Shown here piece after piece: positions 24,360 to 63,028 of a stretch of 64,000 nucleotides of DNA. Made by a program: the position numbers and the translations under genes. Position 1 is the stretch's first letter, and each line of letters opens with the position of its first letter. Below the pieces are notes generated by a model. It was not told the origin of the DNA and did not search any database. It saw nothing but the letters and a program-made list of their open reading frames with translations. The stretch is taken from NCBI GenBank assembly GCA_021802105.1, contig JAKAAW010000002.1:993-64992 (forward strand). Direction: 5' to 3'. This stretch comes from Nanobdellota archaeon (lineage in GTDB: Archaea; Nanobdellota; Nanobdellia; Parvarchaeales; Parvarchaeaceae).

Positions 24360-24456
24360 AATTTATACCTTCTACTCACTACTATTCAATACTATAGAAA
24401 ATAAGTTATATAAATACTTGTTTTTATGGTTATGGGTACACTTACAGCTAAAATGC

Positions 24457-24978: not shown

Positions 24979-25423
24979 ACTTAAGTTAAGCAGTTTTGGC
25001 TATTAAGTTTGTCTATGTGCATGCTAAAAACGCCATCCTTAGTGCCTTTTAGCTAGTCTTCTTCATCCATATAACATTCGGATAGTTAGAAGACTAACTA
25101 AAATCACGGAAAATACTAAAATTACCTTCTTATAGTCATAGTTTTCTTACAAATAGATTTAGTTTCATTTTTTATATTTTATTATTTTATCTAATATATT
25201 AATATTAATTATTTAGGTATAATATCATTAATAGTACATTCTAAAAATAAGTAATATTATCATATTATATAATACTATTTTTATATTTTAATTAGCAATA
25301 ATTTTATGTTAAGTTATAATCAGCCAGTGAAAATATGGATAAAATCGCATCGATTTGCTAGAAGTATAAATCTATATATCAAAGTAACTAAAGGTATTTA
25401 TACCTTTATAACCTTATATCTGT

Positions 25424-25930
25424 ATGGCACAGATGAAAAGCTATATCCCGAACGACATAGATAAAAAGCTAAGGATCCAAGCGATGGTAAGATTCGGTTA
25501 CGGCAGGGGATCCATAAGTAAGGCTGTGGAAGAGGCGTTAATGCAGTGGTTAAAGAAGGAGGCAGTAATAAATGATGTGATACAGAGGATAATTGAACAC
25601 GGGAAGGAGGATAAAAACATAACTGCGATAATACTATTTGGAAGCTATGCAAGAAAGGAGCCTGGCTTCAATGACGTTGACGTGGGTTTTTTGGTGAAAA
25701 TCAGCGAAGAATTCGATATATTAAAATACATCAATCTGCTTGAGGGCGAAGCTGCAAATCTTTTTCAGATGACGGTCATAAACAGTTTCCCAGAATGGAC
25801 ACAGGTACATATAATCGACGAGGGAGTGCTCCTGCAGGTGAATGACAGGAGCGAATTATATGGCTATACTTCCAAGCTTATACGCAATTTTTCTGACAAC
25901 GCACATATAGCGGCGCTGCTTAGAAGCTGA
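25424..25930 (+). CDS. mntA: RHH-fused minimal nucleotidyltransferase (second MntA-type antitoxin)
   Basis: N-terminal SYIPNDIDKKLRIQAMVRFGYGRGSISKAVEEALMQWL (CopG/RHH-like), then LFGSYARKEPGFNDVDVGFL. Confidence 0.75.
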   Translation: MAQMKSYIPNDIDKKLRIQAMVRFGYGRGSISKAVEEALMQWLKKEAVINDVIQRIIEHGKEDKNITAIILFGSYARKEPGFNDVDVGFLVKISEEFDILKYINLLEGEAANLFQMTVINSFPEWTQVHIIDEGVLLQVNDRSELYGYTSKLIRNFSDNAHIAALLRS

Positions 25931-25932
25931 TT

Positions 25933-26364
25933 ATGGAATACGATATGCGTGACAGGATAATCGATAAACTAAATGAGATAGATGTACATTTAAACCGGAT
26001 AAAAAGTATACGTGTAAATAGTTTTGAAGATTACAAAAACGCGGACCCGAATATAAAGTATTCAACGGAGAGGAACCTGCAGCTGATAAGCGACGCAGAG
26101 CTGGACGTAGTTGTCCTAATGTACAAAAAATTCGGCAGGGACGTAGCAGGGGGCCTGCCATCGATGATAAAATCGTTAAAATCCGTGTTGAGCAGTAGCC
26201 TGCTTGGATATTTTGATAAACGGAGGGAACTTAGGAACAGATTGGTGCATGTATATAAGGAATTTTCATTCGATAAGGAAGTCTTTGAATCCAGCAGGGA
26301 CACAGCAGATATTGAAGCGTTTGTGCAGGAAATTAAAAAAATAATAGACAGGGATTGGACTTAA
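25933..26364 (+). CDS. hepT: HEPN (DUF86) toxin (second HepT)
   Basis: RRELRNRLVHVYKEF contains Rx4H. The gene starts 2 nt after the MNT stop. Confidence 0.75.
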   Translation: MEYDMRDRIIDKLNEIDVHLNRIKSIRVNSFEDYKNADPNIKYSTERNLQLISDAELDVVVLMYKKFGRDVAGGLPSMIKSLKSVLSSSLLGYFDKRRELRNRLVHVYKEFSFDKEVFESSRDTADIEAFVQEIKKIIDRDWT

Positions 26365-26486
26365 AGCTGCGGGACTAGAGTTTTATATCTGGCTCCTCAG
26401 CATTTTGCACGGATGATCTTTGTCTTGCTATTTGTTTCCTAGACTCATATCTCTTTATTTTCGGATCGGCCAGCGCAATTAGACGC

Positions 26487-26504
26487 CATATGCAAAGGCA
26501 TATG
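26487..26504. promoter_or_regulatory. Perfect 7-4-7 palindrome upstream of the mer operon; candidate operator
   Basis: CATATGC-AAAG-GCATATG, about 76 nt upstream of the first mer-operon ATG (26580). Confidence 0.35.
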
Positions 26505-26550
26505 CACCCTATAACAAGTAATTATGTACACCCTGTGAAATGTGGCAGAT

Positions 26551-26574
26551 TTATATATGATAAAAATATCATAT
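26551..26574 (+). promoter_or_regulatory. TATA-like box plus an overlapping 8-4-8 palindrome directly upstream of the mer-operon start; candidate promoter/operator for a leaderless transcript
   Basis: TTATATAT at 26551-26558 lies about 25 nt upstream of the ATG at 26580. ATATGATA-AAAA-TATCATAT spans 26555-26574. Confidence 0.35.
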
Positions 26575-26579
26575 AATCA

Positions 26580-27101
26580 ATGATTCGAGACATAAAGAAA
26601 GTTATATCTTTGAGAGTATACGCATTCCTTTTTTCTATCCTTTTTACCTCAATATTTATTATTTACTTCTACCTACTGGAGAGCTCTGCAACTGGTATAA
26701 TGGACTTTAAATCATACTATATCTACTTTGATATATTGTCTGCGCTCATAATTTCATTTTTAGTGGGCTTAGTTATAACGCTCAACGTCTATTCTTATAG
26801 GTTAAAAACTAAGACAAGCAAAAAGCTGACTTTAAGCTCAATAATAGGTGCAATACTACCAAGCAGTCTATGTTGTACCAGCGTGATACCTTCATTGATG
26901 GCAGCGCTTGGGTTTTCAACATCTTTTATAGTCGGAAACACCGGAAAATTGCAGTCATTTTTTTCCTTGTATAGCCCGGGATTTATTGTGGCAGGGGCTG
27001 CAATAGCATTTTTTGGGCTTGTTCAGGTAACAAAAAATATAAACGCAAATTGTAGAATAACCAAAAATTCAAAGAATGATCGTTGCGAGGTTAAGGAATG
27101 A
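26580..27101 (+). CDS. Membrane protein with a MerT/MerF-like vicinal-cysteine helix (putative Hg(II) uptake protein)
   Basis: 4-5 TM helices. LPSSLCCTSVIPSLMAALGFS resembles the MerT TM1 sequence ..ACCLGPLVLIALGFS. It is the first gene of an operon that ends with merA. Confidence 0.5.
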   Translation: MIRDIKKVISLRVYAFLFSILFTSIFIIYFYLLESSATGIMDFKSYYIYFDILSALIISFLVGLVITLNVYSYRLKTKTSKKLTLSSIIGAILPSSLCCTSVIPSLMAALGFSTSFIVGNTGKLQSFFSLYSPGFIVAGAAIAFFGLVQVTKNINANCRITKNSKNDRCEVKE

Positions 27102-27652
27102 AAATCAGAATAAAATACTTGTTGTATATCGCCGTTTTGGTAATCGCCATGTTTATATTGTTGAATTTTTTAGTGCTGAACAATGCAAAATCCGGTGAGT
27201 ATCTCTCAGTAGGGGAAACCGCCCCAAATTACACCTTTCAACTTGCTAATGGCAGCACACAAAGCCTAAGCAGCTACAGTGGGAAACCGCTTATTTTATG
27301 GTTTGTAGCTACATGGTGCAGCAGTTGCGCACAGGGCAACACTGCAGTAGCAGAGAATCTTGGTTTCTTCAAAGAGCATAACGTCAAGATTGTAGAGCTG
27401 GAGCAGTACAATGACCTTGGAAGTGCAGGAATGTCAATCTCTAAGTTTATTTCTGAATACGGAAATAACAACACTTATATAACTGGGGGAATTGCAAGCT
27501 ACAACATGACACTGGCTTATAACACTCCTCCAAGTTTACAGCTTGACATATATTATCTGATAAGCCCGAATGGAAAGATACTAAATATAGGAGAAGGAAT
27601 CGCTGGCGGGATAGGAAATCTGGAGAATACAATATTAAAAGATGGCCTATGA
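27098..27652 (+). CDS. Membrane-anchored thioredoxin-fold protein (TlpA/ResA/redoxin-like)
   Basis: N-terminal TM anchor, then GKPLILWFVATWCSSCAQ (the WCxxC thioredoxin motif). ATGA overlaps occur at both ends of the gene. Confidence 0.7.
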   Translation: MKIRIKYLLYIAVLVIAMFILLNFLVLNNAKSGEYLSVGETAPNYTFQLANGSTQSLSSYSGKPLILWFVATWCSSCAQGNTAVAENLGFFKEHNVKIVELEQYNDLGSAGMSISKFISEYGNNNTYITGGIASYNMTLAYNTPPSLQLDIYYLISPNGKILNIGEGIAGGIGNLENTILKDGL

Positions 27653-27972
27653 AAAAAGCAACTGATTTTTTCTTTGACGCATTAGCAAACAAAAACAGAT
27701 TCAATATACTTATGCATCTCAGAAATAAAGAGATATGTGCAGGTGAGCTTCAAAAGAATCTTGGGATAGGACAGACTAACCTGTCGCATGACTTGAAATG
27801 CCTGCTTAATTGTGGGTTTATAATCATGAGGAAGGACGGGAGAAAAAGAGTTTACAAGATAAACACTGAAACAAAGGGATTAGTAGATGAAGTGGCAAAG
27901 CACGTTAAAATTTATGAAAGGTATTTGAAGAAATGTGGTATACTAAAGGAGGAAAAAAATGGAAGAATATGA
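27649..27972 (+). CDS. ArsR/SmtB-family metal-responsive transcriptional regulator
   Basis: NRFNILMHLRNKEICAGELQKNLGIGQTNLSHDLKCLLNCGFIIMRKDGRKRVY is a typical ArsR wHTH, with Cys candidates at EIC and CLLNC. Confidence 0.8.
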   Translation: MKKATDFFFDALANKNRFNILMHLRNKEICAGELQKNLGIGQTNLSHDLKCLLNCGFIIMRKDGRKRVYKINTETKGLVDEVAKHVKIYERYLKKCGILKEEKNGRI

Positions 27973-29374
27973 ATACGCAGTAGTGGGACACGGAGCTGCT
28001 GCCTTTGCTGCTGCATTGAAAGCGGATGATGCAGGGATAAAAACAGTGATGATAGGAAAAAATGAAACCGCCGGAGCAATTCTCGGTGGAACCTGCGTAA
28101 ACGTGGGATGCGTTCCTAGTAAAAGACTTATAACATTAGGAAATTTATTAGACAAAATAAATTACAGGAGATTTGATGGTTTATCCTACCTTACAAGGAT
28201 AGAAAATTTTAGCAAGATAATGCAAGATAAAGAATTTCTTGTTGAAAGTATGCGTTTCTCAAAATATAAGAAGGTACTTGGTAAATTAAAAAACGTGAAG
28301 TATGTGAACGGCTTTGCAAGCTTTAAAGATAAGAACATATTAATGGTAAACGGGCAAGAGATAAGAGCAAAGAAAATACTGATTGCAACTGGTGCGAGAG
28401 CAAAAATACCTAGAATAGACGGAATAGAAAAGATAAGATACTTGACAAATGAAGAGGCACTTTCACTGGAAAAACTTCCAAAGTCAATTATAATAGTAGG
28501 CGGAAGGGCATTGGGCCTTGAATTTGCGGAGTTGTTCGCTCATTTAGGAGTACAGGTTACTTTGTTGCAGAGAAGCGATAGAATACTGCCTGACTGGGAG
28601 CCTGAAGTTAGTTATTATCTTGAGCAGTACCTGAAGGAGGATGGGATAAATATAATAACTAATGTTAAAATAGATGAGGTTTCAAAGATTAAAGGGCTTA
28701 TAAACTTAACATTTTCCGTAAAAGGAATCAAAAGGGAATCAAAGGCAGAAGAGATTCTGCTGGCAACTGGCAGAATGCCGAACATAGAGAAATTGAATTT
28801 AAACAACATTGGAATAAAACTCGACAAGGATGGCTTTATAAAAATAAACAAGTACCTGGAAACTTCTGTCGAGGGGATTTATGCTGCTGGAGATGTAACA
28901 GGAGAGCCCATGCTTGAGGCATTGGCAGCCGCGGAGGGGAATAAAGCAACCATAAATGCATTCGGCGGCAAAAAAGTAGCAATTGACCTAAATTCTGTAC
29001 CTTCTGCTGTTTTCACATTTCCGGAAGCTGCGAGGGTTGGATTGACTGATAAAGAAGCGAACAACAATGGAATAAAGTGTGCCTGTCGGCCGGTGATGTT
29101 TAAAGATCTAGCCAAGGCAGGTATAATAAAAGATACTAGAGGATTGATAAAGATGGTAATAAACGCTAAGACTAAACGTATATTAGGCGTAGAAATAGTC
29201 GGAGAAAATGCAGCCGATCTAATACACGAATCTGTACTAGCTATAAAATTCAAGCTTACAATAGACGACATAATTGATACTGTTCATATATTTCCAACTT
29301 TAAGCGAGATAACGAAACTTGGAGCTCTATCATTTTATCATAACATAGATGACTTAAGCTGCTGCAGTGAATAG
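27959..29374 (+). CDS. merA: Mercuric reductase MerA (core enzyme, no NmerA domain)
   Basis: FAD fold VVGHGAAAFAAALKA, redox-active GGTCVNVGCVPSK, C-terminal vicinal Cys pair ..DDLSCCSE (MerA hallmark), and GGAGG 8 nt upstream of the ATG. Confidence 0.8.
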   Translation: MEEYEYAVVGHGAAAFAAALKADDAGIKTVMIGKNETAGAILGGTCVNVGCVPSKRLITLGNLLDKINYRRFDGLSYLTRIENFSKIMQDKEFLVESMRFSKYKKVLGKLKNVKYVNGFASFKDKNILMVNGQEIRAKKILIATGARAKIPRIDGIEKIRYLTNEEALSLEKLPKSIIIVGGRALGLEFAELFAHLGVQVTLLQRSDRILPDWEPEVSYYLEQYLKEDGINIITNVKIDEVSKIKGLINLTFSVKGIKRESKAEEILLATGRMPNIEKLNLNNIGIKLDKDGFIKINKYLETSVEGIYAAGDVTGEPMLEALAAAEGNKATINAFGGKKVAIDLNSVPSAVFTFPEAARVGLTDKEANNNGIKCACRPVMFKDLAKAGIIKDTRGLIKMVINAKTKRILGVEIVGENAADLIHESVLAIKFKLTIDDIIDTVHIFPTLSEITKLGALSFYHNIDDLSCCSE

Positions 29375-30878: not shown

Positions 30879-31313
30879 CTACTGGTTTACACCAGCAACC
30901 TTTATCTCGAAGTTGAGCGTCTTGCCTGCCAATGGGAAATTGAAGTCTATTGTGACGTCCTCTCCAGCTACCTCAGTTATTAGTCCCCTGTGCCCTTGAC
31001 TGGAATTAGCAGCCATCCCTACCTTGACTTCCTGACCATTAAACTGTTTCTTCTGAACTTTGGCTATCAGATCCTTCCTTGGCTGTCCATACGCGTCTTC
31101 AGGAGCGATGCTTACACTCTTTGTTTCTCCAATTTTCATACCTATTACAGCTTTATCAAAGCCCTTTATGACATGCCCAGAGCCAACCTCAAATTTCAAA
31201 GGCTCTTTTCCTTCGTTAGAATCGAAAACGGTCCCATCTTCAAGCGTACCTTTATAGAATACACTGACATTATCCCCTTTCTTTACAACACTGTTGTTTG
31301 TTTCCTCTGCCAT
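30879..31313 (-). CDS. FKBP-type peptidyl-prolyl isomerase (SlyD-like, short)
   Basis: VSVFYKGTLEDGTVFDSN, FEVGSGHVIKGFDKAVIGMKIGE, NFPLAGKTLNFEIKV. Confidence 0.8.
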   Translation of the reverse strand: MAEETNNSVVKKGDNVSVFYKGTLEDGTVFDSNEGKEPLKFEVGSGHVIKGFDKAVIGMKIGETKSVSIAPEDAYGQPRKDLIAKVQKKQFNGQEVKVGMAANSSQGHRGLITEVAGEDVTIDFNFPLAGKTLNFEIKVAGVNQ

Positions 31314-31407
31314 CGCTCTCACCTCATAAAATTCCAATATATTATCAGGAACCACCCTTTAAAAAGAGAAGTTAAAACCCTTATTTTGATATTATCTATT
31401 TATCAGA

Positions 31408-33288
31408 TTAACTTGCAGTCACAACAGTTTCTGCATGTGCACCGATTTTTCCAAATAGATTTATACTATAAGAATCTCCTGAAATAAGCACGGCAAAAGG
31501 AGATGGTATCTTTACACCATTGTCACTTTGTACCTGCTGGGACGGTCCTAAATTCAATAAGCCACTGAGGGTAAACGTAATCGAATCTCCAGGCATAAGG
31601 GTATAACCTTTAGGTATCTGGTCCGGGTTTATCGTGACATTCGTATTGGTCGCGCCGTTGGCAATTGTATTCAATGCCGCGCCGTTCGCACTCGTCGAAT
31701 TAGAAACTACCTTTGTGCTCATCGCGTACATTGGTGGGAATCCAAGCGTACCGTTCGGGAATATCATGCGACCTATAGGGAACTTAGCTGCTCGTAAAGT
31801 TATCTGCAGCGGTGGAGTTACAGTCGGTGGTGCCATGCCGGCCGGGAATTGTATATAGAGCGTCGTTCCAACAGGAAGCGTTACCGCCGTGGCTCCAGAT
31901 GGTATAGTGACATTCAGGGCAGGCCCTTGCTGAGAACCATTTTGCTGGATAGTGTGTGTAAATTGCGGCATTGTAGTAGTTTTATAAACTATATCACCGC
32001 TGACATTGACAAGTGCTCCCGTTGAGTTTAATGATATTGCATGCGCTGGTGTGACTATTTTCAAGAAATAGAAAGTTCCATTTAATGTAATATTCAGAGA
32101 TACTGTACTATTTGTGCTGTTAATATAACCTGTACTATTTGACGTTTTTGTATTTGTACTGTTAATAGCACTTTTGTTAATATAACTTGTGCTAATAGAG
32201 GGTGTTATATTTGTACTGTTAATAGCACTTTTGTTAATATAACCTGTACTATTTGACGTTTTTGTATTTGTACTGTTAATCGGAGGTCGAGTCGGTATAG
32301 AAGGCAACGTAAACGTTGATGTTGTGTTCATTATCGTGCCATTGGGGAATGTTATCACCATCTTTGGAGGAGGTATAAAACCAGATGGGGTTAGCACGCC
32401 CGCTGGTGGAGTTATAGGGAGTTGCATGATCATGGATGGAAGACGGAAGAGCTCACTCATTGGAGGTTGTGGGAAATACACTTTTTTGAGCCCATTTATC
32501 ATTATACCGTTCAGCTGCACGCTATCATTCCCAGTGTTCTTTACGGTTACACTAAGATTGGTATAGTTACCGTCGATGGATATTGACGCAGAAGTAACAT
32601 TTATGGTAGGCGTTACATTGTTGAACAATTTACCTAAGCTTACATTGGAAGAAAAGTTCACCTTAGAACCTACTGGAGGAAGAGACTGTATTATTCCATG
32701 CTGCACACTAGAGGATCTGCTTAAAAATATGTTTGGTGGAGTTATGACAGCTCTCACATTAGCAGTCAAAACGTACACAGTCTTATCTACCGTTTCTATG
32801 GCTGTGACTGAAGGAATTAAGTCGACAAGCGCGTTTTTCTGCCCAGATATTGAATTGTTGGACGTTACATTTATCGTCAGTGTCCTTTCGCCTATCACGA
32901 CAGTATAGTTTTCGCCGCCTATCGTTATAATAGCATTGGATATATTAATTTTTATCTGCGTGACTTTAGAACCATTAAGAACGTTTGTTGATGCTAACAC
33001 TATCGATGAATTTTGCAGGCTTAGCACGTTTACGGTACCACTTCCTGGAAGTGTCTGCGTGCTTACGCCGCCACTATGCGAAATCTGGAGTTGCAGAGCA
33101 GAATATGTCACGAACAGCGCCGTGGTCCCTTGTGGCACTGTTGCAGGATCAGTAAGACTAAGGAAGAAATTTTTCTGTAAAGGAACTGAACTGGTCGTTG
33201 GGAACAAATTGTTAAAGATCATATACCCTGCGACAATAGCTATTACCGCCACAACGGTGACCATCATTAAGTAGGTTTTCGCACCCAT
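31408..33288 (-). CDS. Large secreted or membrane-anchored, heavily sequon-rich surface (S-layer-like) glycoprotein
   Basis: N-terminal anchor MGAKTYLMMVTVVAVIAIVAGYMIF. Dozens of N-x-S/T sequons and Thr/Ser/Asn/Pro-rich repeats. Confidence 0.6.
   Translation of the reverse strand: MGAKTYLMMVTVVAVIAIVAGYMIFNNLFPTTSSVPLQKNFFLSLTDPATVPQGTTALFVTYSALQLQISHSGGVSTQTLPGSGTVNVLSLQNSSIVLASTNVLNGSKVTQIKINISNAIITIGGENYTVVIGERTLTINVTSNNSISGQKNALVDLIPSVTAIETVDKTVYVLTANVRAVITPPNIFLSRSSSVQHGIIQSLPPVGSKVNFSSNVSLGKLFNNVTPTINVTSASISIDGNYTNLSVTVKNTGNDSVQLNGIMINGLKKVYFPQPPMSELFRLPSMIMQLPITPPAGVLTPSGFIPPPKMVITFPNGTIMNTTSTFTLPSIPTRPPINSTNTKTSNSTGYINKSAINSTNITPSISTSYINKSAINSTNTKTSNSTGYINSTNSTVSLNITLNGTFYFLKIVTPAHAISLNSTGALVNVSGDIVYKTTTMPQFTHTIQQNGSQQGPALNVTIPSGATAVTLPVGTTLYIQFPAGMAPPTVTPPLQITLRAAKFPIGRMIFPNGTLGFPPMYAMSTKVVSNSTSANGAALNTIANGATNTNVTINPDQIPKGYTLMPGDSITFTLSGLLNLGPSQQVQSDNGVKIPSPFAVLISGDSYSINLFGKIGAHAETVVTAS
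32100..32285. repeat. Tandem repeat of 57 nt (19 aa), about 3 copies, inside the surface-protein gene
   Basis: GTTAATATAACCTGTACTATTTGACGTTTTTGTATTTGTACTGTTAAT occurs exactly at 32119-32166 and 32233-32280, with a diverged copy between. The protein reads INSTNTKTSNSTGYINKSA / INSTNITPSISTSYINKSA / INSTNTKTSNSTGYIN. Confidence 0.85.
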
Positions 33289-33451
33289 AATGTTATTGTA
33301 ACAATGCACTAATTTAAATACCTATCTGCAATAAACTCATGTTTACTGCACGATTCTTCAAGAACCGTTCAAGACGCTTATTCCTGGCTGTAGAATGCCC
33401 ACTGTTCATCTTTGCTTCCATTTTTTATTGATTATCCGTACTAAATGTAAT

Positions 33452-42696: not shown

Positions 42697-44217
42697 TTAT
42701 CTGTTTCTTCTGTTCTTCCCCTTCTTATACTCTGGTATAGTAAACCTGTTCCAGAAGAGCTTGTGCAGCCGGAGCTTATCTGGTATCTTATTCAGGTATG
42801 GTATAAACGGAAATAGTATCAGCAGCACAAAGAAACCCAACGCTATCATGCCTCCATCGAAATCTGCGTTTGGATCATTACTGAGTATCGTTATATCTAG
42901 CAGATTGTATGGGGCGACCCACCAGCTGCCGGGCGGCCACAGTCCCGGGTTGTTTTTTATCATACCGAATTGCTGAAGCTGCAGTCCATCCTTAGTCGCA
43001 ATTGTATTCATTGTCCCAGTGTCTGAAAGGAATCTTAGGATGTATGTCTGGTCAAAACCGCTTGTTTCCTGGTAGCTTAGACTGCTCTGGTACAGACCGC
43101 TCTTAGCCATCAGGACCAGAGAGCTTATCACAGCTATCAGAGGATTGCTTGGATTGACAGAGGCATTTATTGTACCATTATCTCTAAAATAGGCATAAGC
43201 GCTGTTTATGTTTGTAGACTGCTCTGATATATTCTCGGAGTTGAAGAGGGCTTCCGCGTCCGTGCTGCCCGAAATGTTGATGTACTGATTATAAGGTATG
43301 GTCACATAAACGGTGCGTGTGTTAAAGGTGTAGGGATCTATAGTGTCTAGATACGTGGCTGTGCCGGATGTGTGGTTGAATTCCTGCAAGAGAGTCATAG
43401 CTACTATGTTTGGAGAAGATTGTGCGACACTCTGTATTGTGACAGGTGCCACATAAGGTGCCCTGAAGAAAAGCGCGAAAAGAATTATTATGGCAGTCAG
43501 AACGAGCGCCCTTTGATATAACTTCTTGTGGCTTGCTTCTACCATAGAGTAAGGGATATCGTTTCGATAAGGAGTAGATATTCCTCTCCTCTTGACTAGC
43601 GAGAAGTGCACAGCTATAAGTATCATAAGTATAAGCGGTATTATAGCTATATGCCACCCATATAACGCCCCCCAATTCAGAGGGTTTACCCAATAGCCGA
43701 GTCCGATGCCGTTCCAGAGATCAGCCGCCGATAAATCGTTCCATTGAGATACAAAATCACCTCTTATACCCAGGCCGAAAGCTTCCTCCAAAAGCACCAA
43801 AAATAGGAGGATAGAGCCTACCATCCAGACTAGCTTTCTCTTTAAGAAAGCTGACGTGGAAAACGTGACGAAGACATGCAAAATGAGAATGGTTCCAAAC
43901 GCAAACGCCGCCCACATGTGTATGCTCCTTACAAAAGTCCCCCATGTTGTCGTGTTCCACCAGAACGGACCAAAAATAACCATTATTATCCCAGATAGGG
44001 CGAGTATTACAAAAGTTACAAGAAGAAGAAATCCAAGAGAATAGAACACGCTGTTCCCATATGATGGTACTTTCCTTATGTAAACGGATTGCACGAGTCC
44101 TTTTATCTCACCGAGCAACGACGGGTCCTCTTCTTTTCTTTTTCTTGCGCGACTTGGCATATAGCTATCTAATAAAGGATTATCTAAGAATTTAAGGGTT
44201 TTAGCCGCCGTTTTCAT
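42697..44217 (-). CDS. Cytochrome b-family membrane protein fused to a large C-terminal extracytoplasmic domain
   Basis: FVRSIHMWAAFAFGTILILHVF and YGWHIAIIPLILMILIAVHF give two His pairs with cytochrome b spacing. The C-terminal roughly 250 aa are Ser/Asn/Thr-rich and end in a final TM helix. Confidence 0.6.
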   Translation of the reverse strand: MKTAAKTLKFLDNPLLDSYMPSRARKRKEEDPSLLGEIKGLVQSVYIRKVPSYGNSVFYSLGFLLLVTFVILALSGIIMVIFGPFWWNTTTWGTFVRSIHMWAAFAFGTILILHVFVTFSTSAFLKRKLVWMVGSILLFLVLLEEAFGLGIRGDFVSQWNDLSAADLWNGIGLGYWVNPLNWGALYGWHIAIIPLILMILIAVHFSLVKRRGISTPYRNDIPYSMVEASHKKLYQRALVLTAIIILFALFFRAPYVAPVTIQSVAQSSPNIVAMTLLQEFNHTSGTATYLDTIDPYTFNTRTVYVTIPYNQYINISGSTDAEALFNSENISEQSTNINSAYAYFRDNGTINASVNPSNPLIAVISSLVLMAKSGLYQSSLSYQETSGFDQTYILRFLSDTGTMNTIATKDGLQLQQFGMIKNNPGLWPPGSWWVAPYNLLDITILSNDPNADFDGGMIALGFFVLLILFPFIPYLNKIPDKLRLHKLFWNRFTIPEYKKGKNRRNR

Positions 44218-55076: not shown

Positions 55077-55217
55077 ATGGAAAAAGATATAGTCTGTGGA
55101 ATGGAAGTTGATGAAGGTTCGGATTGCAATAGTCTAGTTAATGGAAGGATATTCTATTTCTGCTCAGAAGAATGCAAGAATAAATTCGACAAAAATCCAA
55201 TAAAATACATTAGATAA
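55077..55217 (+). CDS. Small TRASH/YHS-domain metal-binding protein (46 aa, below the ORF-track cutoff)
   Basis: My translation is MEKDIVCGMEVDEGSDCNSLVNGRIFYFCSEECKNKFDKNPIKYIR (CGM...FCSxxC). Its TAA overlaps the ATG of the ATPase gene (TAATG). Confidence 0.7.
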   Translation: MEKDIVCGMEVDEGSDCNSLVNGRIFYFCSEECKNKFDKNPIKYIR

Positions 55218-57262
55218 TGCCAACAGATCCTGTATGCGGAATGTACGTTCCGCAGAGTTCGAAGATAACAACTGAACAGGGTGGACAGAGGTATTATTTC
55301 TGCTCTACGACCTGCAGTGTAAAATTCCAAAAACCAGAACAAGAGAGCAGGCGCGAGAAGAAAGCCCTGGCAATTGCGTGGGTATTTTCTATACCCCTTA
55401 TCGTGATAAACTACAGTTTCTTTTTCGCATACAGGAATTATGCGATGCTCGCTCTCGCGCTGCCAGTGCAATTCTATTCTGGGTTACTTTTCTACAAAGG
55501 CGCTTACCAGTCGCTAAAGATGAGATCCGGTAATATGGATCTCCTAATAAGCGTAGGGACACTGACCGCTTTCTTTTTCTCACTATTTATAACCCTGTAC
55601 CCTTCTGTTATGCAAGGGTCACCGGTGTATTTCGATGCGTCAGTGTCTATAATATCACTTATACTGACTGGGAATTACATTCAGAGCGTTACAGAGATTA
55701 GGGCCAACGACGCGGCAAACAAACTATTGAATAGGATTCCTTCGAGAGCCCATCTTATAATCGGCGGAAAAGTCAGGGACGTAGAAACGTCAACTTTGAA
55801 GAAAGGAGATATAATAATGATAAAACCGGGTGAAAATATACCAGTCGATGGTACTGTCATCAGTGGAAAAACGGAAATCGATGAGTCTATGCTTACAGGA
55901 GAAGCTGAACCAGTGGTAAAGATAAATGGGGCACTCGTGACTTCAGGGACATTAAACATAAACGGCGCGATAAATGTCAGAGTAGTAAACACCGGTAGGG
56001 ACACTATTGTAAACAAGATGTACTCTCTTATAAAGAGTGCCGCTGCGGGAAAGCTAAGAGTACAGAGACTCGCAGATTTGTTCGCGTCATACTTCGTTCC
56101 GATAGTTATAATAGCTGCTGTTGCTTCTGCCCTTATATGGTACACTCTGCTGAGTTCGACCGGCAACGCACTCGTGTACGATGTGACCGTGCTTGCGTTC
56201 GTTTCTGTCATAGTGATAGCGTGTCCGTGTGCGATAGGGCTTGCCACGCCGATAACGTTGCTGATTGCGTCTAATGTATCTTCTGAACGATCCATACTTA
56301 TGAAAAACGTTAGCGGTCTCGACAGACTGTCTAAGATAGACATTGTTGTGTTTGATAAGACAGGTACTCTTACCGAATTAGTACCAAATGTCATAGAAAT
56401 AGTCCCTATAAACAGGTCTTATAATAACAAATTTGTCCTGAGCTATGCCTCTTCGCTGGAACAGTACTCAAATCACCCTATCGCCAAAGCTATTATGGAG
56501 TATGCAAAGACTGGAAAGATAAATCTACTGGACGTGGTAGATGCAAAAGAAAAACCCGGCATAGGCGTGTCCGGAATGATAAACGGAGAGCTCGTTGAGA
56601 TAAGCAGGGGTTCCGACAAAAACACGGTAAACTTATACATCAACAGGGCACTTTTCGGTGTGATAACGCTGTCATATGGAATAAAGAGGAATGCAGCAGA
56701 GGTAGTAAGGAGATTTAAATCCGCAGGAATAAAAACTGCCATAATAACAGGAGATAAGTATGAGGAGGCAAAGCGTATAGGTGACGCAATAGGCGTAACT
56801 GATATACATGCAGAAGTCACTCCAGAAAAGAAGGCAGATATAATAAAAGACTACCAGAAGAAGGGGAGATATGTAATGTACGTCGGAGACGGCATCAATG
56901 ATGCGATAGCGATAGAGACCGCCGATTTCGGCGTTGCTATGGGAAGTGGGAGTGATATAGCAAAAGAGAGCGGTGACGCAGTGCTTCTTAAAAATGATCT
57001 TATGCTGCTCTATGATCTTTATATCATAGGAAAATCAGCAATATCTAAGGTTAAGCAGAATATAGGCTGGGCTGTCGGCTATAACATTGTCCTTATACCC
57101 GTAGCAGGAGGAGCGCTTGTACCTGTTTTTGGCCTTGGGATATACTCATTTCTTCCTATACTCGCAGCGGCAGCAATGGGCATGAGTTCGGTCAGTGTGG
57201 TGGCGAATTCTCTGCTCTTGAAAAGCAAAGTAAGCAAAAATTTGTCAAGATTTAACAGCTAA
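55217..57262 (+). CDS. copA: Copper-translocating P1B-type ATPase with an N-terminal TRASH domain
   Basis: N-terminal DPVCGMYV...YYFCSTTCSVKF, TGE, CPC (IACPCAIGLATP), DKTGTLT, GDGINDA. Confidence 0.9.
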   Translation: MPTDPVCGMYVPQSSKITTEQGGQRYYFCSTTCSVKFQKPEQESRREKKALAIAWVFSIPLIVINYSFFFAYRNYAMLALALPVQFYSGLLFYKGAYQSLKMRSGNMDLLISVGTLTAFFFSLFITLYPSVMQGSPVYFDASVSIISLILTGNYIQSVTEIRANDAANKLLNRIPSRAHLIIGGKVRDVETSTLKKGDIIMIKPGENIPVDGTVISGKTEIDESMLTGEAEPVVKINGALVTSGTLNINGAINVRVVNTGRDTIVNKMYSLIKSAAAGKLRVQRLADLFASYFVPIVIIAAVASALIWYTLLSSTGNALVYDVTVLAFVSVIVIACPCAIGLATPITLLIASNVSSERSILMKNVSGLDRLSKIDIVVFDKTGTLTELVPNVIEIVPINRSYNNKFVLSYASSLEQYSNHPIAKAIMEYAKTGKINLLDVVDAKEKPGIGVSGMINGELVEISRGSDKNTVNLYINRALFGVITLSYGIKRNAAEVVRRFKSAGIKTAIITGDKYEEAKRIGDAIGVTDIHAEVTPEKKADIIKDYQKKGRYVMYVGDGINDAIAIETADFGVAMGSGSDIAKESGDAVLLKNDLMLLYDLYIIGKSAISKVKQNIGWAVGYNIVLIPVAGGALVPVFGLGIYSFLPILAAAAMGMSSVSVVANSLLLKSKVSKNLSRFNS

Positions 57263-57268: not shown

Positions 57269-57904
57269 TCAATTGTTTATCGCGGCTATCTTAATCTCAA
57301 AATTCAACGTGTCGCCTACAAGGGGAGAGTTGAAGTTTATGGAAACTTTTGTGTAATTTCCCCATACTGTGCTATTTGTTCCGTTAACAACAACACTTGG
57401 ATTCAACTTTCCTGTGATATTCGTTCCATTTATCGCCATTATGACACCGTGTGAAATACCGTTGTATACCTGCTCTCCATCATGGATAGATTCATTTCTG
57501 AATACAGATGCATTGACTGTGAGGACAAGTGATGAATTGAAGTATCCGTACGCCTCACTCGGAGATAAAGTCACGTTCTTTATCTGGCCGACTTTCATCC
57601 CTATAACTGCTCGGCTAAACCCTGGAATCATCTGATTCGAGCCTGCTATGAAGCTGAATGGAGTACTGCCCATGTTTGAACCGAAAACAGTACCGTTTGC
57701 GAAACTCCCTGTGTAGTATACGCTCACATTGTCACCAGCAGCTATGACAGGTGAAGATCCGCTTAAATAAGGCAGGACAAAGAATACTGCAGCAATTACC
57801 GCGGCCACTGCGATCGTAGCGATGCCGTAAATGATCTTGAACCCGAAAGTTTTCTTCTCTTCTCTAGGCTCTGAAGGTTCTAATTGCTTTGTCTTCTCTT
57901 CCAT
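57269..57904 (-). CDS. Membrane-anchored (extracytoplasmic) FKBP-type PPIase
   Basis: N-terminal TM helix IIYGIATIAVAAVIAAVFFVL, then VSVYYTGSFANGTVFGSN, IPGFSRAVIGMKVGQ, NSPLVGDTLNFEIKI. Confidence 0.65.
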   Translation of the reverse strand: MEEKTKQLEPSEPREEKKTFGFKIIYGIATIAVAAVIAAVFFVLPYLSGSSPVIAAGDNVSVYYTGSFANGTVFGSNMGSTPFSFIAGSNQMIPGFSRAVIGMKVGQIKNVTLSPSEAYGYFNSSLVLTVNASVFRNESIHDGEQVYNGISHGVIMAINGTNITGKLNPSVVVNGTNSTVWGNYTKVSINFNSPLVGDTLNFEIKIAAINN

Positions 57905-57969: not shown

Positions 57970-59304
57970 TTAGATCATGCCTTTAGAAGAGGGGAGATCT
58001 TTCCGTATCGCTGCAAAGTTTACCCTACAGTCTAGCTGTTCTTTCACGTAAAGGAGGTCATTTAGCGCGTTATTCAGGCATGAGGAGGCTCCAGGAGACG
58101 GCGTTATATTGAACAGTATATTGGAACCCTCAACTCTAGCCTCTCCCATTATCAGTCTCTTCTTCTTTTCGTCTATTATTTGCGGTCTTATACCCCCTGC
58201 TTGCGTGTCTCGCGTCAAATCCGATGCTTTAAGCAAGGGGACTATCTTTCTCACTTCCTTCTCTGCAAACTCGTCTCTGCCTATAATGGGGAATTTGTAT
58301 AGTAGGTTCTTAGAGAGTATGCGCTGTATGTCCCTATGAAACAAAAGATGGAATAGACTCTCGAAAGTGCCAATGTCGAAATCGAAAGATTTCATGTATG
58401 GTATGAATGAACCAAGCTTGCCTTTCTCAAGAAAAGGGTAGATATCTACAGTCGGGCCGAATCTGCTCCTGCTAGGATAATTTATATCAGGATCCCCGTG
58501 TATCGCGGCGAAAGGTATATCCCCCATCTGGATTCTGTAGACCTTACCGTTGAGAACCTTGGGTGAGTGATAAAATCCACCCCCTACTGACAGGATTGAC
58601 ATTTCTCCCGCGTAGCCCATAGACTTAGCAAACATAAGGCTATACGCACCAGCCGCGAATATCACCATTCGCGCGCTTATCTCACCATGTGCAGTATAAA
58701 GGATATAAGAGCCTCCTTTCCTTTTTATCTTTTTTACTTCAGTATTGAATCGTATTTTTACGGCATCTCTTTTCGATAGATTTATGAATGAACGTGCCAA
58801 GCCCCCAAAGTTGACCATATATCCTTCAGGAGAACGGATGGCCTTTATATTTTCATCAGGATCTCTCCCTTTGACAACGTTAGGCTCGTAAATGGCTATC
58901 TCATTTTTGTCTATGAGCTTGAGTTTTGGGAATAGACTCCGTATGCCGGAGTAATATCTCGTCTCTAGTGCTTTGATCTCCTCTTCGCCGACAGCCAGCG
59001 CCATCTTTTCGCAGCCCTGTACTAGTTTTCTTCTAAGCGTCGGTTTTAACCCTGCTACATAATCTAATAGCATGTGAGCGGCTGTGCTTGTCTTCTGCGC
59101 CTTTTTTACGGGATAATTAGTCTCTATATCGCCGAAATGGAGAGTCTGGCTGTTGTTGTGGCTATCCGAGTTCAGTGGTGCCGGTGCACCATATTTTTCC
59201 AGTAACAGTATTCTTCCTACGTTGGAATACTTGCTCAGCATGTAAAGTGCAGAGGTTCCTACGACACCTGCCCCTATTATGACGACATCATATTCATTTT
59301 CCAT
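57970..59304 (-). CDS. FAD-dependent oxidoreductase, malate:quinone oxidoreductase-like
   Basis: YDVVIIGAGVVGTSALYML (FAD fold). SDSHNNSQTLHFGDIETNY resembles the Mqo motif S.WNNAGTGH...ELNY. Confidence 0.55.
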   Translation of the reverse strand: MENEYDVVIIGAGVVGTSALYMLSKYSNVGRILLLEKYGAPAPLNSDSHNNSQTLHFGDIETNYPVKKAQKTSTAAHMLLDYVAGLKPTLRRKLVQGCEKMALAVGEEEIKALETRYYSGIRSLFPKLKLIDKNEIAIYEPNVVKGRDPDENIKAIRSPEGYMVNFGGLARSFINLSKRDAVKIRFNTEVKKIKRKGGSYILYTAHGEISARMVIFAAGAYSLMFAKSMGYAGEMSILSVGGGFYHSPKVLNGKVYRIQMGDIPFAAIHGDPDINYPSRSRFGPTVDIYPFLEKGKLGSFIPYMKSFDFDIGTFESLFHLLFHRDIQRILSKNLLYKFPIIGRDEFAEKEVRKIVPLLKASDLTRDTQAGGIRPQIIDEKKKRLIMGEARVEGSNILFNITPSPGASSCLNNALNDLLYVKEQLDCRVNFAAIRKDLPSSKGMI

Positions 59305-59401: not shown

Positions 59402-60184
59402 TTAGGCGTTTGGTCTCCAGCTGCGATCCCTGAGAGGGTCTACAAGTTTCAGCTGTAGATACTCCCTTCCAGAATACAGCCCAAGTTCGCTTCTGCCCGT
59501 GCCGTCAAAGTTTGTCGCCACATTATGCAAAGTATTTCTTATGGATTCCCAATTTTGGTTGTATTTTCCATTCCCAGTAACTACGTGTTCTACTATATTC
59601 AGCACTGTGCCTTTTCTTGTTTGTTCTGTATACATATGCCAGCATAGTGACGTTTCATCTGGAAAGATTATCGCATTAGGGATTATGTACTCCCTACCTG
59701 CTTCCACACGGCTGTCCATGCTGTTCCTGTCCTCTAGATAAAGCTTGTGCAGGAATATTTTATTGCGCTTGTAGTACTCTATCAACCCCTTCTCATCATA
59801 TCTCTTGTCTATGTTATTATCCGTCATGAATCTCTTCATCGTCTGGGTACAGAAACCTATGCTGAGAGGAAGTACAAAGTCAGAAAAGATTTTGGTATCG
59901 TCTCCACGTGAAAACTTATCCACTAATGGGGTCAGTTTCACGTCCAGAAGATAATATGAAGCCTTAGTCGTGGATTTGTATGCGTGGTATCTGTGCATTT
60001 CCCCATCTTTGTTTTCACGGAACATCTTGTCTCCTCCGTACGGTACCTCTGTGCCGTTTTTAGGTCGAAATTCAAGCAGCGTTGCTTCCAAGATGCTGTC
60101 ATCATAACTCATCTTGTTATCCCACAAATCCGATAGATACATGGATGAAAGAATAGAACGCAAGCCCTTCGGATACGTTACCAT
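59402..60184 (-). CDS. Hypothetical protein (260 aa)
   Basis: Clean ORF with no recognised motif. Confidence 0.5.
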   Translation of the reverse strand: MVTYPKGLRSILSSMYLSDLWDNKMSYDDSILEATLLEFRPKNGTEVPYGGDKMFRENKDGEMHRYHAYKSTTKASYYLLDVKLTPLVDKFSRGDDTKIFSDFVLPLSIGFCTQTMKRFMTDNNIDKRYDEKGLIEYYKRNKIFLHKLYLEDRNSMDSRVEAGREYIIPNAIIFPDETSLCWHMYTEQTRKGTVLNIVEHVVTGNGKYNQNWESIRNTLHNVATNFDGTGRSELGLYSGREYLQLKLVDPLRDRSWRPNA

Positions 60185-60269: not shown

Positions 60270-60848
60270 ATGGAAAAAATAAAAATAGTAGGCATAATAG
60301 GCAGTCTAAGAAAACAATCTTACAATAGGATGCTAATGAACGCAGCAATAAAACTCAAACCTGACAACTGCGAGATAGAAATCGCCGATATATCAGAAAT
60401 CCCTCCATACAATCAAGACATCGAGAATTCCGCACCGGAATCTGTCGTTGTGCTCCAGAAGAAAATAAAGGAGGCGGACGCGGTCCTAATATCTACACCA
60501 GAGTACAACTATTCTGTCCCAGGAGTTCTTAAAAACGCGATAGACTGGGCCTCAAGACCGTACGGTTCCGATGCTTTCACAAGCAAAGCAATAGGCATTA
60601 TGAGCGCATCCATAGGACAGATAGGGGGCGCTAGGGCGCAGTACCATCTCAGGCAGTCTTTTGTATATCTGGACGCTTTCACAGTGAACAAACCAGAGGT
60701 TATGCTAAGTTTCGCAAACGAGAAATTTGACGATAAGGGCGAGCTGAAGGACGAAAAAACCAAAGAGCTAATACGATTGTTATTGACTAATATAATCTCC
60801 CTTGCCAGACTTATGGAGAAGAATGAAAAGACCGTTGAAGCTCTTTAG
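60270..60848 (+). CDS. NAD(P)H-dependent FMN reductase (ChrR/SsuE-like)
   Basis: IVGIIGSLRKQSYNRMLMNAA and ISTPEYNYSVPGVLKNAIDWASR. Confidence 0.8.
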   Translation: MEKIKIVGIIGSLRKQSYNRMLMNAAIKLKPDNCEIEIADISEIPPYNQDIENSAPESVVVLQKKIKEADAVLISTPEYNYSVPGVLKNAIDWASRPYGSDAFTSKAIGIMSASIGQIGGARAQYHLRQSFVYLDAFTVNKPEVMLSFANEKFDDKGELKDEKTKELIRLLLTNIISLARLMEKNEKTVEAL

Positions 60849-60886: not shown

Positions 60887-61222
60887 ATGCTTGATGCCAG
60901 AAAAGGAAAACTTGAAGACCTGATAAGAGAGCTAGGAGCACCGGAGAGATTATCAACAAAGAAGGATGTGGCTATATACAGCACAAAGAAAAGTTTACTC
61001 AGGATCCCTAATAGAGTGTACATAACAGGATACGTAAAGAGCGACTCAAGACCATTGTACTTCCACAGCGTGGCTATAACGTATATCCCTGGAAAAAGGA
61101 CTGCAAACAGGGGAGAATGCAGCTGCGAATCATTCGAATACAGGGGATTCCCGTGCAAACACGCAGTTAAAATGAAGGATGCGTACGTCGCATGGCTTGC
61201 AATCGAGCGAAAAAATCGATAA
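60887..61222 (+). CDS. SWIM zinc-finger domain protein
   Basis: CSCESFEYRGFPCKHAVKM fits CxCx(n)CxH. Confidence 0.6.
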   Translation: MLDARKGKLEDLIRELGAPERLSTKKDVAIYSTKKSLLRIPNRVYITGYVKSDSRPLYFHSVAITYIPGKRTANRGECSCESFEYRGFPCKHAVKMKDAYVAWLAIERKNR

Positions 61223-61405
61223 AACTTTGTATAAAGCGCCATTATCAAAAATAGTTGTTATTTGGTGGGAGCATATCAAAATTTCATAATGGGCTTGAGA
61301 AGGCAGCCAGTTTTGTATGGCTTATCATAGGTGCATGAGGTTATTATGCGCGACAGTTTAGATTTATAAATTGGAAATAACTATGTTATATTAGAGGTGT
61401 AACAT

Positions 61406-61924
61406 ATGTTAAAAAGAATTTTTAGTTTGGCAGATAAAGTATTCGGGGGGAAAGTTGTCTATGCGCACTGTGATATCCCATGCGGGATATATGACCCTCA
61501 CACTGCACAGCTGTCAGCCCATACAGTGATAAGGATGGATGCTCTGATAGAGAAGATGCCGAAGATAGGGCCCTCTCCCAGCAACGATGAATTCAGAAAA
61601 TACATACATGATCTTACGAGATACACTGATGTGAAGGAGGAACACGCGGAGAAGATAAAGAGTGAAGTAAGGATACTTTGGGGTGATTACTTCAAAGACG
61701 ACCATGCCAAACAGTTCCCCGAACTCGAAGGGCTCGTTCTTCAAGCACTTAGACTTGGTTCAAAGGTAAAACAGGAAGTCGATCCAAAATCTGCGCAGGA
61801 ACTCCTCGAGACCATTAACAAGATAGCCGAGATATTCTGGAAGACTAAGGGAATAGAGACAAAGAGGGTAAAGGTCACGTTCTGGCCCACCGATTCAGAT
61901 CTCGTTATTCCAATACTTAACTGA
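61406..61924 (+). CDS. sodN: Nickel-containing superoxide dismutase precursor (SodN)
   Basis: A 20-aa leader is followed by HCDIPCGIYDP (the Ni-hook HCDLPCGVYDP). ILWGDYFKDDHAKQFPELEGLV and IAEIFWKTK match Streptomyces SodN blocks. GAGGTG lies upstream of the ATG. Confidence 0.9.
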   Translation: MLKRIFSLADKVFGGKVVYAHCDIPCGIYDPHTAQLSAHTVIRMDALIEKMPKIGPSPSNDEFRKYIHDLTRYTDVKEEHAEKIKSEVRILWGDYFKDDHAKQFPELEGLVLQALRLGSKVKQEVDPKSAQELLETINKIAEIFWKTKGIETKRVKVTFWPTDSDLVIPILN

Positions 61925-62217
61925 TGGTTTTTTTCCTGAAGAGATTCAGGGTGTCTGAAGAAAGCATGTTGCCCGGGATAAAGCCCGGTGATTACATCAT
62001 CGTAGACACTCTGCGCTATAAGCTTAGGTCCCCTAAGAATGGTGATATAATAGTCTTCAGGCACGATGGAATGGAGATGGTTAAAAGAATTTCCGCAAAC
62101 GATGGTGGCTCTTATACCGTACTCGGAGACAACCTAAACAAGAGCGTTGACAGCAGGAGATTCGGACCGATAAAAAAAAGGGATGTGGTAGGCAAAGTTA
62201 TCTGGATAGCTAAGTGA
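61924..62217 (+). CDS. sodX: S26-family signal-peptidase-like NiSOD maturation protease (SodX)
   Basis: SMLPGIKPGD (catalytic Ser box), VKRI (Lys box), GDNLNKSVDSRRFGP. A TGATG overlap links it to sodN. Confidence 0.75.
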   Translation: MVFFLKRFRVSEESMLPGIKPGDYIIVDTLRYKLRSPKNGDIIVFRHDGMEMVKRISANDGGSYTVLGDNLNKSVDSRRFGPIKKRDVVGKVIWIAK

Positions 62218-62259: not shown

Positions 62260-62460
62260 ATGACTGAGATAGGAAAAATCGTTGAGTTCGTCAGCACCTC
62301 CAAGGTAAGCTTTGAGGACGCTGTTAAGAAAGCCGTCGAGGACCTCTCTAAGAAAGAGTCGGACGTTAGAGGCTTCAAAATAAAGAATGTCAGCGTGCAG
62401 ACCAAGAACGGAAAGATAGTAGGATGGCGCGTAAACCTTAAGGGTTCGGCCAGCGTTTAA
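62260..62460 (+). CDS. Dodecin-family (flavin-binding) protein
   Basis: 66 aa. KIVEFVSTSKVSFEDAVKKAVEDLSK...VRGFKIKNVSVQTKNGKIVGWRVNLK parallels the dodecin pattern. Confidence 0.65.
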   Translation: MTEIGKIVEFVSTSKVSFEDAVKKAVEDLSKKESDVRGFKIKNVSVQTKNGKIVGWRVNLKGSASV

Positions 62461-62518: not shown

Positions 62519-63028
62519 TCAGTACAGTTCCCTTATGCCCGTGGATTCGAGTATGTTTGTGTAGTCAAGGAACACCTGTTTATTGATGCTCTTTCCAAGA
62601 TTTCTCAGAAGCATGAAGAGATATTTTTTTTCGTATGTGTACAGTTTTATGTACGGTCTTGACATAAAGCCTCCTCTTTTTAGCTTTATTCTTCTGATCT
62701 GAGAGTATGGGAGAGCAAAACTACCTTTATGCGTACTGAGTATAGTGATTGGGTCTACACTTAGCAGGCGGTGTGATTCGTCAGCGACATTCTTTACCAT
62801 ATTCTTGAATCTGAATCTTGGATCCGGTAAATGACCTATTCCGTCGATTCCATCTATGACAGCCAATCTTAAAAGTGATTCTGATTCAGCTGCGAGCAAC
62901 GTCGCAATGACCCTCTCCGATGTGAAAACAAGAGAATAGACTGGCTTGTTTTCTTCAGCCGGAAACTGCGCATTGTCTATGACGCCCAGAATCTTTTCAG
63001 GTTCAATCTCTTCTTGCATAATACACAA
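62519..63028 (-). CDS. Hypothetical protein (about 166 aa)
   Basis: Clean ORF with no recognised motif. Confidence 0.45.
   Translation of the reverse strand: MCIMQEEIEPEKILGVIDNAQFPAEENKPVYSLVFTSERVIATLLAAESESLLRLAVIDGIDGIGHLPDPRFRFKNMVKNVADESHRLLSVDPITILSTHKGSFALPYSQIRRIKLKRGGFMSRPYIKLYTYEKKYLFMLLRNLGKSINKQVFLDYTNILESTGIRELY

Follow-up and report, generated by a model that had tools for sequence, protein, structure and literature searches.

Does a nickel superoxide dismutase (NiSOD) encoded on an archaeal contig represent a recent acquisition from bacteria, or a long-standing part of the gene complement of its host? The question is raised by a 64,000-nucleotide stretch of a Nanobdellota archaeon assembly (GCA_021802105.1, contig JAKAAW010000002.1, positions 993 to 64,992 of the forward strand), referred to here as the window and used for all coordinates below unless another locus is named. 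Near its end it carries sodN, encoding a NiSOD precursor, and sodX, encoding the putative maturation protease. An original prediction, made from the sequence letters, recognized the pair and read it as a horizontal acquisition, unusual among archaea, by a Thermoplasma-type host of a kind generally described with Fe/Mn-type enzymes. The analysis described here points instead to an operon of two genes, sodN and sodX, that is resident in a tiny, acid-loving and uncultivated member of the Parvarchaeota (DPANN archaea), encodes a NiSOD of the long Chloroflexota type, has been established for a long time and was not recently imported. A probability of roughly 0.88 is assigned to this reading.

Identification of sodN and sodX

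The sodN open reading frame (ORF; 61406..61924, + strand, stop codon included) encodes a precursor of 172 amino acids (aa) that starts with the leader MLKRIFSLADKVFGGKVVYA, followed directly by HCDIPCGIYDP; the assignment draws on Pfam, NCBIfam, PDB and AlphaFold (AF2) comparisons. It matches Pfam Sod_Ni (PF09055) with an E-value of 1.2e-39 and 136 bits (cutoff 25), and the NCBIfam equivalog TIGR02753 with 156.2 bits (cutoff 90) over model positions 1–144 of 145, essentially the full length of the family. The 20-aa leader (M1–A20, 61406..61465, + strand) ends in V-Y-A, and cleavage behind it would expose His21. In 82 members of the NiSOD clade discussed below, the residue at position −1 relative to the hook is Ala in 80 and the residue at −3 is Ala or Val in 80, a pattern that matches the Ala-x-Ala preference of S26 peptidases. 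The Ni-hook, H21-C-D-I-P-C-G-I-Y29 (61466..61492, + strand), contains the predicted ligands His1, Cys2 and Cys6 (numbered from the mature end) together with Tyr9. It lies right behind the putatively cleavable leader, conforms to the family pattern HCxxPCGxY, and aligns with HCDLPCGVY of the crystallised Streptomyces enzyme (HMMER, PDB 1t6u); its H, C, D, P, C, G and Y, and the D and P that follow, are invariant in all 82 clade homologues. Across 81 SodN sequences of the clade there are 28 invariant columns, a sign that the clade is under strong purifying selection. Two short upstream elements, TTTATAAA (61363..61370, + strand), some 36–43 nt 5′ of the sodN ATG, and the Shine-Dalgarno-like GAGGTG (61394..61399, + strand), 6 nt ahead of the start, are consistent with an archaeal TATA box and a ribosome-binding site, respectively.

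The sodX gene (61924..62217, + strand) encodes 97 aa and overlaps sodN by 1 nt, the sodN stop TGA and the sodX ATG having one base in common (junction TGATG). Its translation contains the boxes EESMLPG, VKRIS and GDNLNKSVDSRRFGP and scores 72.2 bits against TIGR02754 (sod_Ni_protease; cutoff 63.25), with an E-value of 2.2e-21 for Peptidase_S26 and a match to Peptidase S24 as well. The general signal peptidase I model TIGR02227 is also matched, at 81.5 bits, as expected for a small S26 member; unlike the general signal peptidases, SodX is a minimal protein without a membrane anchor. The catalytic dyad, Ser14 (61963–61965) and Lys54 (62083–62085), is invariant in 72 of 72 sodN-linked homologues, and the box G68-D-N...D76-S-R78 is present, with GDN..DSR 83–93% conserved in the same 72. 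In 73 of 80 other species sodX likewise adjoins sodN, mostly directly downstream. SodX probably cleaves the SodN leader right before His1. As far as gene identity is concerned, then, the original prediction is borne out, both for SodN with its leader and hook and for the TGATG-coupled S26-type SodX.

A working scheme can be drawn on the Streptomyces paradigm. The two genes would be translated together by way of the TGATG-coupled start, giving SodN as a 172-aa precursor from which SodX, a cytoplasmic Ser14/Lys54 protease, would remove 20 residues by cutting after V-Y-A (Ala20). His21 would become the new N-terminus, residue 1, and Ni(II/III) would be wrapped by the free amine and imidazole of His21, the amide and thiolate of Cys22 and the thiolate of Cys26, forming the Ni-hook. 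This hook would sit on a four-helix bundle, and the enzyme would turn superoxide into O2 and H2O2. Cleavage, Ni loading, assembly into a homohexamer and SOD activity are all expected by analogy with the Streptomyces enzyme.

Identity of the host

The window encodes archaeal translation initiation factor 2 gamma (aIF2-gamma), ribosomal protein S6e, diphthamide synthase, FtsZ, SecE/Sec61-gamma and a leucyl-tRNA synthetase (LeuRS) of archaeal type, and these genes mark the contig as archaeal, as had been claimed. The Thermoplasma-type host had to be given up. Host placement was based on database matches of two marker proteins, aIF2-gamma and LeuRS. The former is 81% identical to a protein from a Candidatus Parvarchaeota metagenome-assembled genome (MAG); above 60% identity, all of its matches with an organism name are from Parvarchaeota, Nanoarchaeota appear once at 60%, Parvarchaeota appear again down to 55%, and below about 50% the names shift to other DPANN and other archaea. 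The best named matches of LeuRS, at 46–50%, are from Parvarchaeota and Parvarchaeum acidophilus ARMAN-5, with Rehaiarchaeum and Aenigmarchaeota coming next. There are no Thermoplasmata names among the top 120 matches of either protein. A Parvarchaeota MAG has the genes around aIF2-gamma in the same order (diphthamide synthase on the − strand, S6e, aIF2-gamma, PIN_9). Taken together, the matches of the two proteins and the gene order indicate a host in the Parvarchaeota (DPANN) and not a Thermoplasma-type one.

The assembly collection lists the SodN sequence in 38 blocks, and 24 contigs carrying it were read; the longest contig of its cluster is 110.5 kb. Six sodN loci from different samples, on contigs of 21–97 kb and including one from NCBI GCA_027370155.1, have identical gene order, which rules out a chimera and contradicts the possibility of a bacterial mis-bin. 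Composition is uniform across the junctions of sodN-sodX with the flanking DNA.

Comparison with known NiSODs

The AF2 model of SodN, built on 81 homologues, has a mean pLDDT of 91, with helices at residues 32–49, 60–95, 107–123 and 127–146. In a Foldseek search of the PDB with this model the 16 best matches were all NiSODs, with target TM-scores of 0.89–0.93 and E-values of 3e-8 to 4.5e-7. As modelled, SodN has the right-handed four-helix-bundle fold carrying an N-terminal hook.

The best-known relatives are the enzymes of Streptomyces coelicolor and S. seoulensis (PDB 1t6u, 1q0d), with a HMMER E-value of 5.5e-22 between 1t6u and the window SodN. Common to both sides are a cleavable leader, an HCDxPCGxY hook and an adjacent S26-type SodX, and in the model the four-helix-bundle core is shared at a target TM-score of about 0.9 and 36–38% identity. 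The Streptomyces leader is 14 aa long, compared to 20 in the window, and the mature chain is 117 aa versus 152. In the stretch joining helices 1 and 2 (residues 42–66, 61529..61603, + strand), SodN has 13 residues more than the Streptomyces enzyme in the alignment to 1t6u; the predicted loop proper comprises residues 50–59, with helix 1 of the model ending at 49 and helix 2 starting at 60. This longer form of the helix 1–2 region is present in most clade members. At the other end, a C-terminal extension of about 24 aa beyond the solved 1t6u chain (residues 149–172, 61850..61921, + strand) has the motif [YW]-P-T ... V-x-P and is predicted to form a beta-hairpin, with AF2 strands at 152–156 and 165–169 (pLDDT 80–93). 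Residues Y160, P161, T162, V167 and P169 of this tail are at least 90% conserved among the 81 homologues, and the tail motif in the form [YW][PS][TS] is found in 11 of 24 bacterial and 43 of 57 archaeal clade members. Median mature length in the clade is 150 aa for archaea and 149 aa for bacteria. Given the near-equal lengths and the conserved tail, the extra loop and tail mark the Chloroflexota-type clade and are no archaeal peculiarity; the claim that the protein is longer than the bacterial enzymes is right for Streptomyces, but fails for clade members from Chloroflexi and the candidate phyla radiation (CPR), which are equally long.

In the Streptomyces enzyme, Glu17 and Arg47 hydrogen-bond to His1. 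They correspond to Ser37 and His80 of the window SodN; across the clade, the Glu17 position is Ala or Ser in 95 of 100 sequences and the Arg47 position is His in 96 of 100. An assignment to the Actinobacteriota-type subclass was considered and rejected, as the mature protein has 152 aa and not about 117, and lacks both Glu17 and Arg47. Prochlorococcus and Synechococcus also have sodN and sodX as a unit of two genes, and exposure of His1 depends on the protease, as was reportedly demonstrated in E. coli by Eitinger in 2004; their enzymes represent another NiSOD clade and their hosts are bacteria.

By its sequence, the window SodN belongs to the long Chloroflexota-type NiSOD clade, with which it shares the long form, the AHCDIPCG hook and the company of interspersed archaeal and bacterial members. 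A neighbor-joining (NJ) tree rooted on Streptomyces places it inside the ingroup retrieved with the AHCDIPCG hook pattern, although Streptomyces was the only non-clade sequence included, so that the tree is not an independent test of clade membership. It differs from the rest of the clade in being a long branch, with at most 59% identity to all but one database sequence, and in its Parvarchaeota host, a group not named in the available portion of the study by Sutherland et al. (2021; bioRxiv 10.1101/2021.01.12.426412, later Geobiology). The NiSODs of Thermoplasmatota (Poseidoniales/marine group II and Lutacidiplasmatales) are similar in being encoded by archaeal sodN genes (K00518) and in having been discussed as an oxidative-stress adaptation. 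Those of marine group II, however, are placed by the literature in an Actinobacteriota/Cyanobacteria-type clade (PMC10783094 and 10.1101/2021.01.12.426412), and those of soil Thermoplasmata form two separate supported clades without the window sequence, one of them with sodX divergently upstream.

Distribution among archaea and bacteria

A scan of GTDB species-representative genomes for SodN relatives gave at least 593 matching stretches in archaea and bacteria. Among the best 80 of these, 57 are archaeal, from Micr-, Parv-, Nano-, Aenigmat- and Woesearchaeota, Thermoplasmata/“Methanobacteriota”, Thaumarchaeota, Marsarchaeota and Heimdallarchaeota; the count with locus L087 included is 81, and its remaining 24 sequences are from Chloroflexi, CPR/Patescibacteria, Elusimicrobia and “Gammaproteobacteria”. 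The 120 best database matches of SodN are nearly all of the long form, at 162–183 aa, and those with names are from Thermoplasmata, Aenigmarchaeota, Thaumarchaeota and Parvarchaeota MAGs.

Contrary to what had been supposed, there is nothing unusual about NiSOD in an archaeon, and sodN-sodX pairs, which are found in many archaeal genomes, have already been published. This breadth largely refutes the original prediction on the terms that it had set itself, namely a wide occurrence of sodN/sodX among archaea in database searches. Sutherland et al. (10.1101/2021.01.12.426412) report NiSOD in 26 archaea from several clades and phyla, read this as the result of multiple bacteria-to-archaea transfers, and describe a Chloroflexota-type clade in which Patescibacteria occur together with Woesearchaea and further archaea. 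Qu et al. (2023; PMC10783094) analysed the NiSOD of marine group II and noted the enzyme in DPANN, TACK, Asgard and Thermoplasmatota archaea, and Sheridan et al. (2022; PMC9287336) list Ni-SOD among the traits of Lutacidiplasmatales. For the Parvarchaeota themselves, the literature mentions only the Fe/Mn-type sodA, and NiSOD has already been called by NCBI annotation in a Parvarchaeota MAG. With only sodA in the Parvarchaeota papers, NiSOD in this group is a small addition.

Not all of the pairs are arranged alike. In a number of loci (L037, L047, L049, L050, L060, L061, L069–L072, L077–L082, L085 and L086) sodX lies divergently upstream, on the opposite strand, roughly 600–690 nt before sodN. 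These belong to one Thermoplasmata clade and its Dehalococcoidia/Chloroflexi relatives, the arrangement tracking the SodN clade (86% NJ support). Two placements in the tree are at odds with the organism names. The SodN of a MAG labelled “bacterium clean3188” (L071) nests in a Thermoplasmata clade with 81–93% support, and those of three “Gammaproteobacteria” MAGs (L019, L030 and L043) group with CPR sequences (88%). Both could be due either to transfers or to mislabelled or mis-binned MAGs.

History of the locus and alternative explanations

In base composition the pair resembles housekeeping genes of the window: GC content is 0.443 for sodN and 0.442 for sodX, compared to 0.442 for both LeuRS and aIF2-gamma, and GC at third codon positions (GC3) is 0.486 and 0.531, compared to 0.495 and 0.471, respectively. 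A sister lineage (L095), whose SodN has 79% identity to that of the window, retains the order SWIM-x-sodN-sodX-dodecin-orf165. This divergence is similar to that of the nearest relatives of aIF2-gamma (81–84%) and LeuRS (76–80%). With housekeeping-like GC and GC3 and with synteny in the sister lineage, nothing points to a recent transfer.

NJ trees of SodN with bootstraps were made from two alignments, of 83 and 100 sequences. The window SodN and the sequence P0002 are paired at 100% support, but support for the next node is at most 27%, so that the deeper placement carries little weight. Archaea and bacteria are mixed overall, in lineage-coherent clades. Thermoplasmata sequences form two distinct clades, supported at 96% and 93%, and one of these falls within Dehalococcoidia/Chloroflexi (86%); the SodN of Parvarch_JOPF222 is placed with Micrarchaeota. 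The tree agrees with the published view, in which the gene moved between domains long ago and was inherited vertically thereafter, and the presence of the clade in archaea would ultimately go back to such transfers as the literature describes.

Against this background, it is extremely unlikely that a Thermoplasma-type archaeon normally using Fe/Mn SOD made a recent and unusual acquisition of bacterial sodN and sodX. The long-held view of NiSOD as bacterial would favor such an event, as would the naming of sodA alone in Parvarchaeota papers and the mixture of domains in the SodN tree. But the marker proteins place the host in the Parvarchaeota, the closest SodN relatives are archaeal, at no more than 59% identity and with no bacterial donor, the composition and sister-lineage synteny are those of an established gene, and archaeal NiSOD is both published and widespread. 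What survives of the claimed horizontal acquisition is the bacterial ancestry to which the literature attributes archaeal NiSOD, without any sign of recency. A bacterial sodN-sodX fragment misjoined to archaeal DNA might be suspected because the window comes from metagenome assemblies; given the same neighborhood in all six loci, the uniform composition, and the presence on one contig of sodN with aIF2-gamma, S6e, diphthamide synthase, SecE and an archaeal LeuRS, such an artefact can be virtually dismissed. It is also very unlikely that there is no working Ni enzyme, with SodX a general peptidase, or SodN having another metal or a non-SOD role, in a genome-reduced host without Ni uptake. The substitution of Glu17 and Arg47 and the lack of a Ni transporter in the window would be in keeping with this, but all metal ligands and Tyr9 are invariant, as are 28 columns in 81 sequences, the linkage of sodN to sodX is kept across phyla, and SodX is minimal and without a membrane anchor.

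Several points do weigh against a long-resident Parvarchaeota operon for a Chloroflexota-type NiSOD. Glu17 and Arg47 are replaced throughout the clade, so the fine mechanism may differ from that in Streptomyces; no biochemical or structural characterisation of an archaeal or Chloroflexota-type long-form NiSOD was found in the literature; and no nickel importer was found within the 64-kb window. The window SodN joins the Parvarchaeota/Nanoarchaeota SodN group (L007/L087/L040) in just 10 of 300 NJ replicates. The next relative from the Parvarchaeota, at 59% SodN identity, has a sodX that encodes 105 aa and is convergent to sodN, with a 31-aa ORF between them (L087 6001–7186; L089 and L090 4001–5186), and the context of dCTP deaminase, NUDIX and Rieske genes is unlike that of the window. 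The failure to group and the differing arrangement together leave descent from a Parvarchaeota ancestor unsupported. An alternative that must be taken seriously, at somewhat less than an even chance, is that this Parvarchaeota sublineage obtained sodN-sodX independently of other Parvarchaeota and long ago, from a DPANN, Thermoplasmata or Chloroflexi/CPR donor living alongside it, instead of inheriting the pair from the Parvarchaeota ancestor. The rarity of the joining with the L007/L087/L040 group despite the solid pairing with P0002, the convergent sodX and other context in related Parvarchaeota, the position of Parvarch_JOPF222 beside Micrarchaeota, and the repeated transfers documented for the NiSOD family are all in its favor. 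On the other side, the deep nodes have at most 27% support on 148 columns, and the 59% SodN identity to the Parvarchaeota relative falls between those for LeuRS (50%) and aIF2-gamma (73%), which is compatible with vertical descent plus rearrangement; the three relatives may, moreover, come from one genome. It is unlikely, though conceivable, that the long NiSOD is a mechanistically or structurally distinct subclass, with another His1 hydrogen-bond network or another oligomer, and that in this genome-reduced Parvarchaeote it is perhaps the only SOD, replacing the Fe/Mn SodA reported from its relatives in the Parvarchaeota. No Fe/Mn SOD signature was found within the 64-kb window, the only part of the genome covered by the search for this enzyme and for Ni-uptake genes.

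Surrounding genes and the rest of the window

The sodN-sodX pair had been described as part of a redox cluster. The neighbors in question are present: a gene of the NADPH-dependent FMN reductase family (60270..60848, + strand; Pfam FMN_red, E 1.6e-44), a SWIM zinc-finger gene upstream of sodN (60887..61222, + strand; Pfam SWIM), and a dodecin gene 43 nt 3′ of sodX (62260..62460, + strand; Pfam Dodecin, E 2.7e-15). However, their adjacency is not conserved beyond the immediate lineage. In tblastn searches of 81 loci (L007–L087) with FMN_red, SWIM, dodecin and the flanking ORFs, neither SWIM nor dodecin had a match beside sodN, and an FMN_red homologue was within 3 kb of sodN in one locus, as a weak, distant match. 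A conserved redox module around sodN was therefore rejected; SWIM and dodecin are kept only in the sister lineage L095, the SWIM gene is considered to lie outside the SOD system, and the FMN reductase gene is an adjacent gene rather than a conserved partner. Dodecin, although lineage-specific, is possibly co-transcribed with sodN-sodX. A bacterial promoter/terminator scan gave no terminator-like site between sodX and dodecin, bacterial models being uninformative for an archaeon.

L095 differs in having an extra 181-aa ORF without a Pfam match between the SWIM gene and sodN (399–944 of that locus), where the window has a 183-nt spacer. The 169-aa ORF 3′ of dodecin (62519–63028, − strand) has a putative 165-aa counterpart in L095 at the same position and in the same orientation. 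It has no Pfam family, which is also the case for the ORFs at 59402–60184 (− strand, 260 aa), 31408–33309 (− strand, 633 aa) and 2580–3995 (+ strand, 471 aa).

Oxygen- and metal-related genes elsewhere in the window are a hemerythrin, a Redoxin/AhpC-like (peroxiredoxin-like) protein, a pyridine-nucleotide disulfide oxidoreductase with dimerisation domain, a cytochrome b, a P-type ATPase, and a Mqo/DAO-like flavoprotein (positions listed: 11161–11613, 27098–27652, 27959–29374, 42697–44217, 55217–57262 and 57970–59304). The P-type ATPase has an N-terminal YHS domain and is of the Cu type. Judging by this set of oxygen-related genes, the DPANN archaeon may live aerobically or microaerobically. 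Three genes for FKBP-type peptidyl-prolyl isomerases are found in the 64 kb (7100–7747, 30879–31355 and 57269–57904); the product of the last, with its hydrophobic N-terminal segment and numerous N-x-S/T sites, is probably membrane-anchored or secreted. A SlyD-like nickel chaperone was considered among them and dropped, since the two of the three that were translated both lack a His-rich tail.

The stretch from 20000 to 28000 has a GC content of 0.32–0.38, compared to about 0.42 elsewhere, and may be a genomic island. It contains several ORFs without a Pfam family, a DUF5680 protein (22451–22939), a GNAT acetyltransferase (24457–24978), and a nucleotidyltransferase/HepT-like (MNT-HEPN) toxin-antitoxin pair (25424–25930 and 25933–26364). 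No tRNA genes (ARAGORN) and no Rfam families at gathering score were found across the window (1–64000).

Implications

The immediate outcome is the addition of a Parvarchaeota sublineage to the archaea that carry NiSOD, which matters little beyond bookkeeping. It fits with the view that DPANN archaea of acid mines and sediments are exposed to oxygen. For the enzyme family, NiSOD is no bacterial speciality: uncultivated archaea carry this clade no less often than Chloroflexi and CPR bacteria do. The predicted C-terminal hairpin and altered second sphere of the long NiSOD could also hide a modest mechanistic difference.

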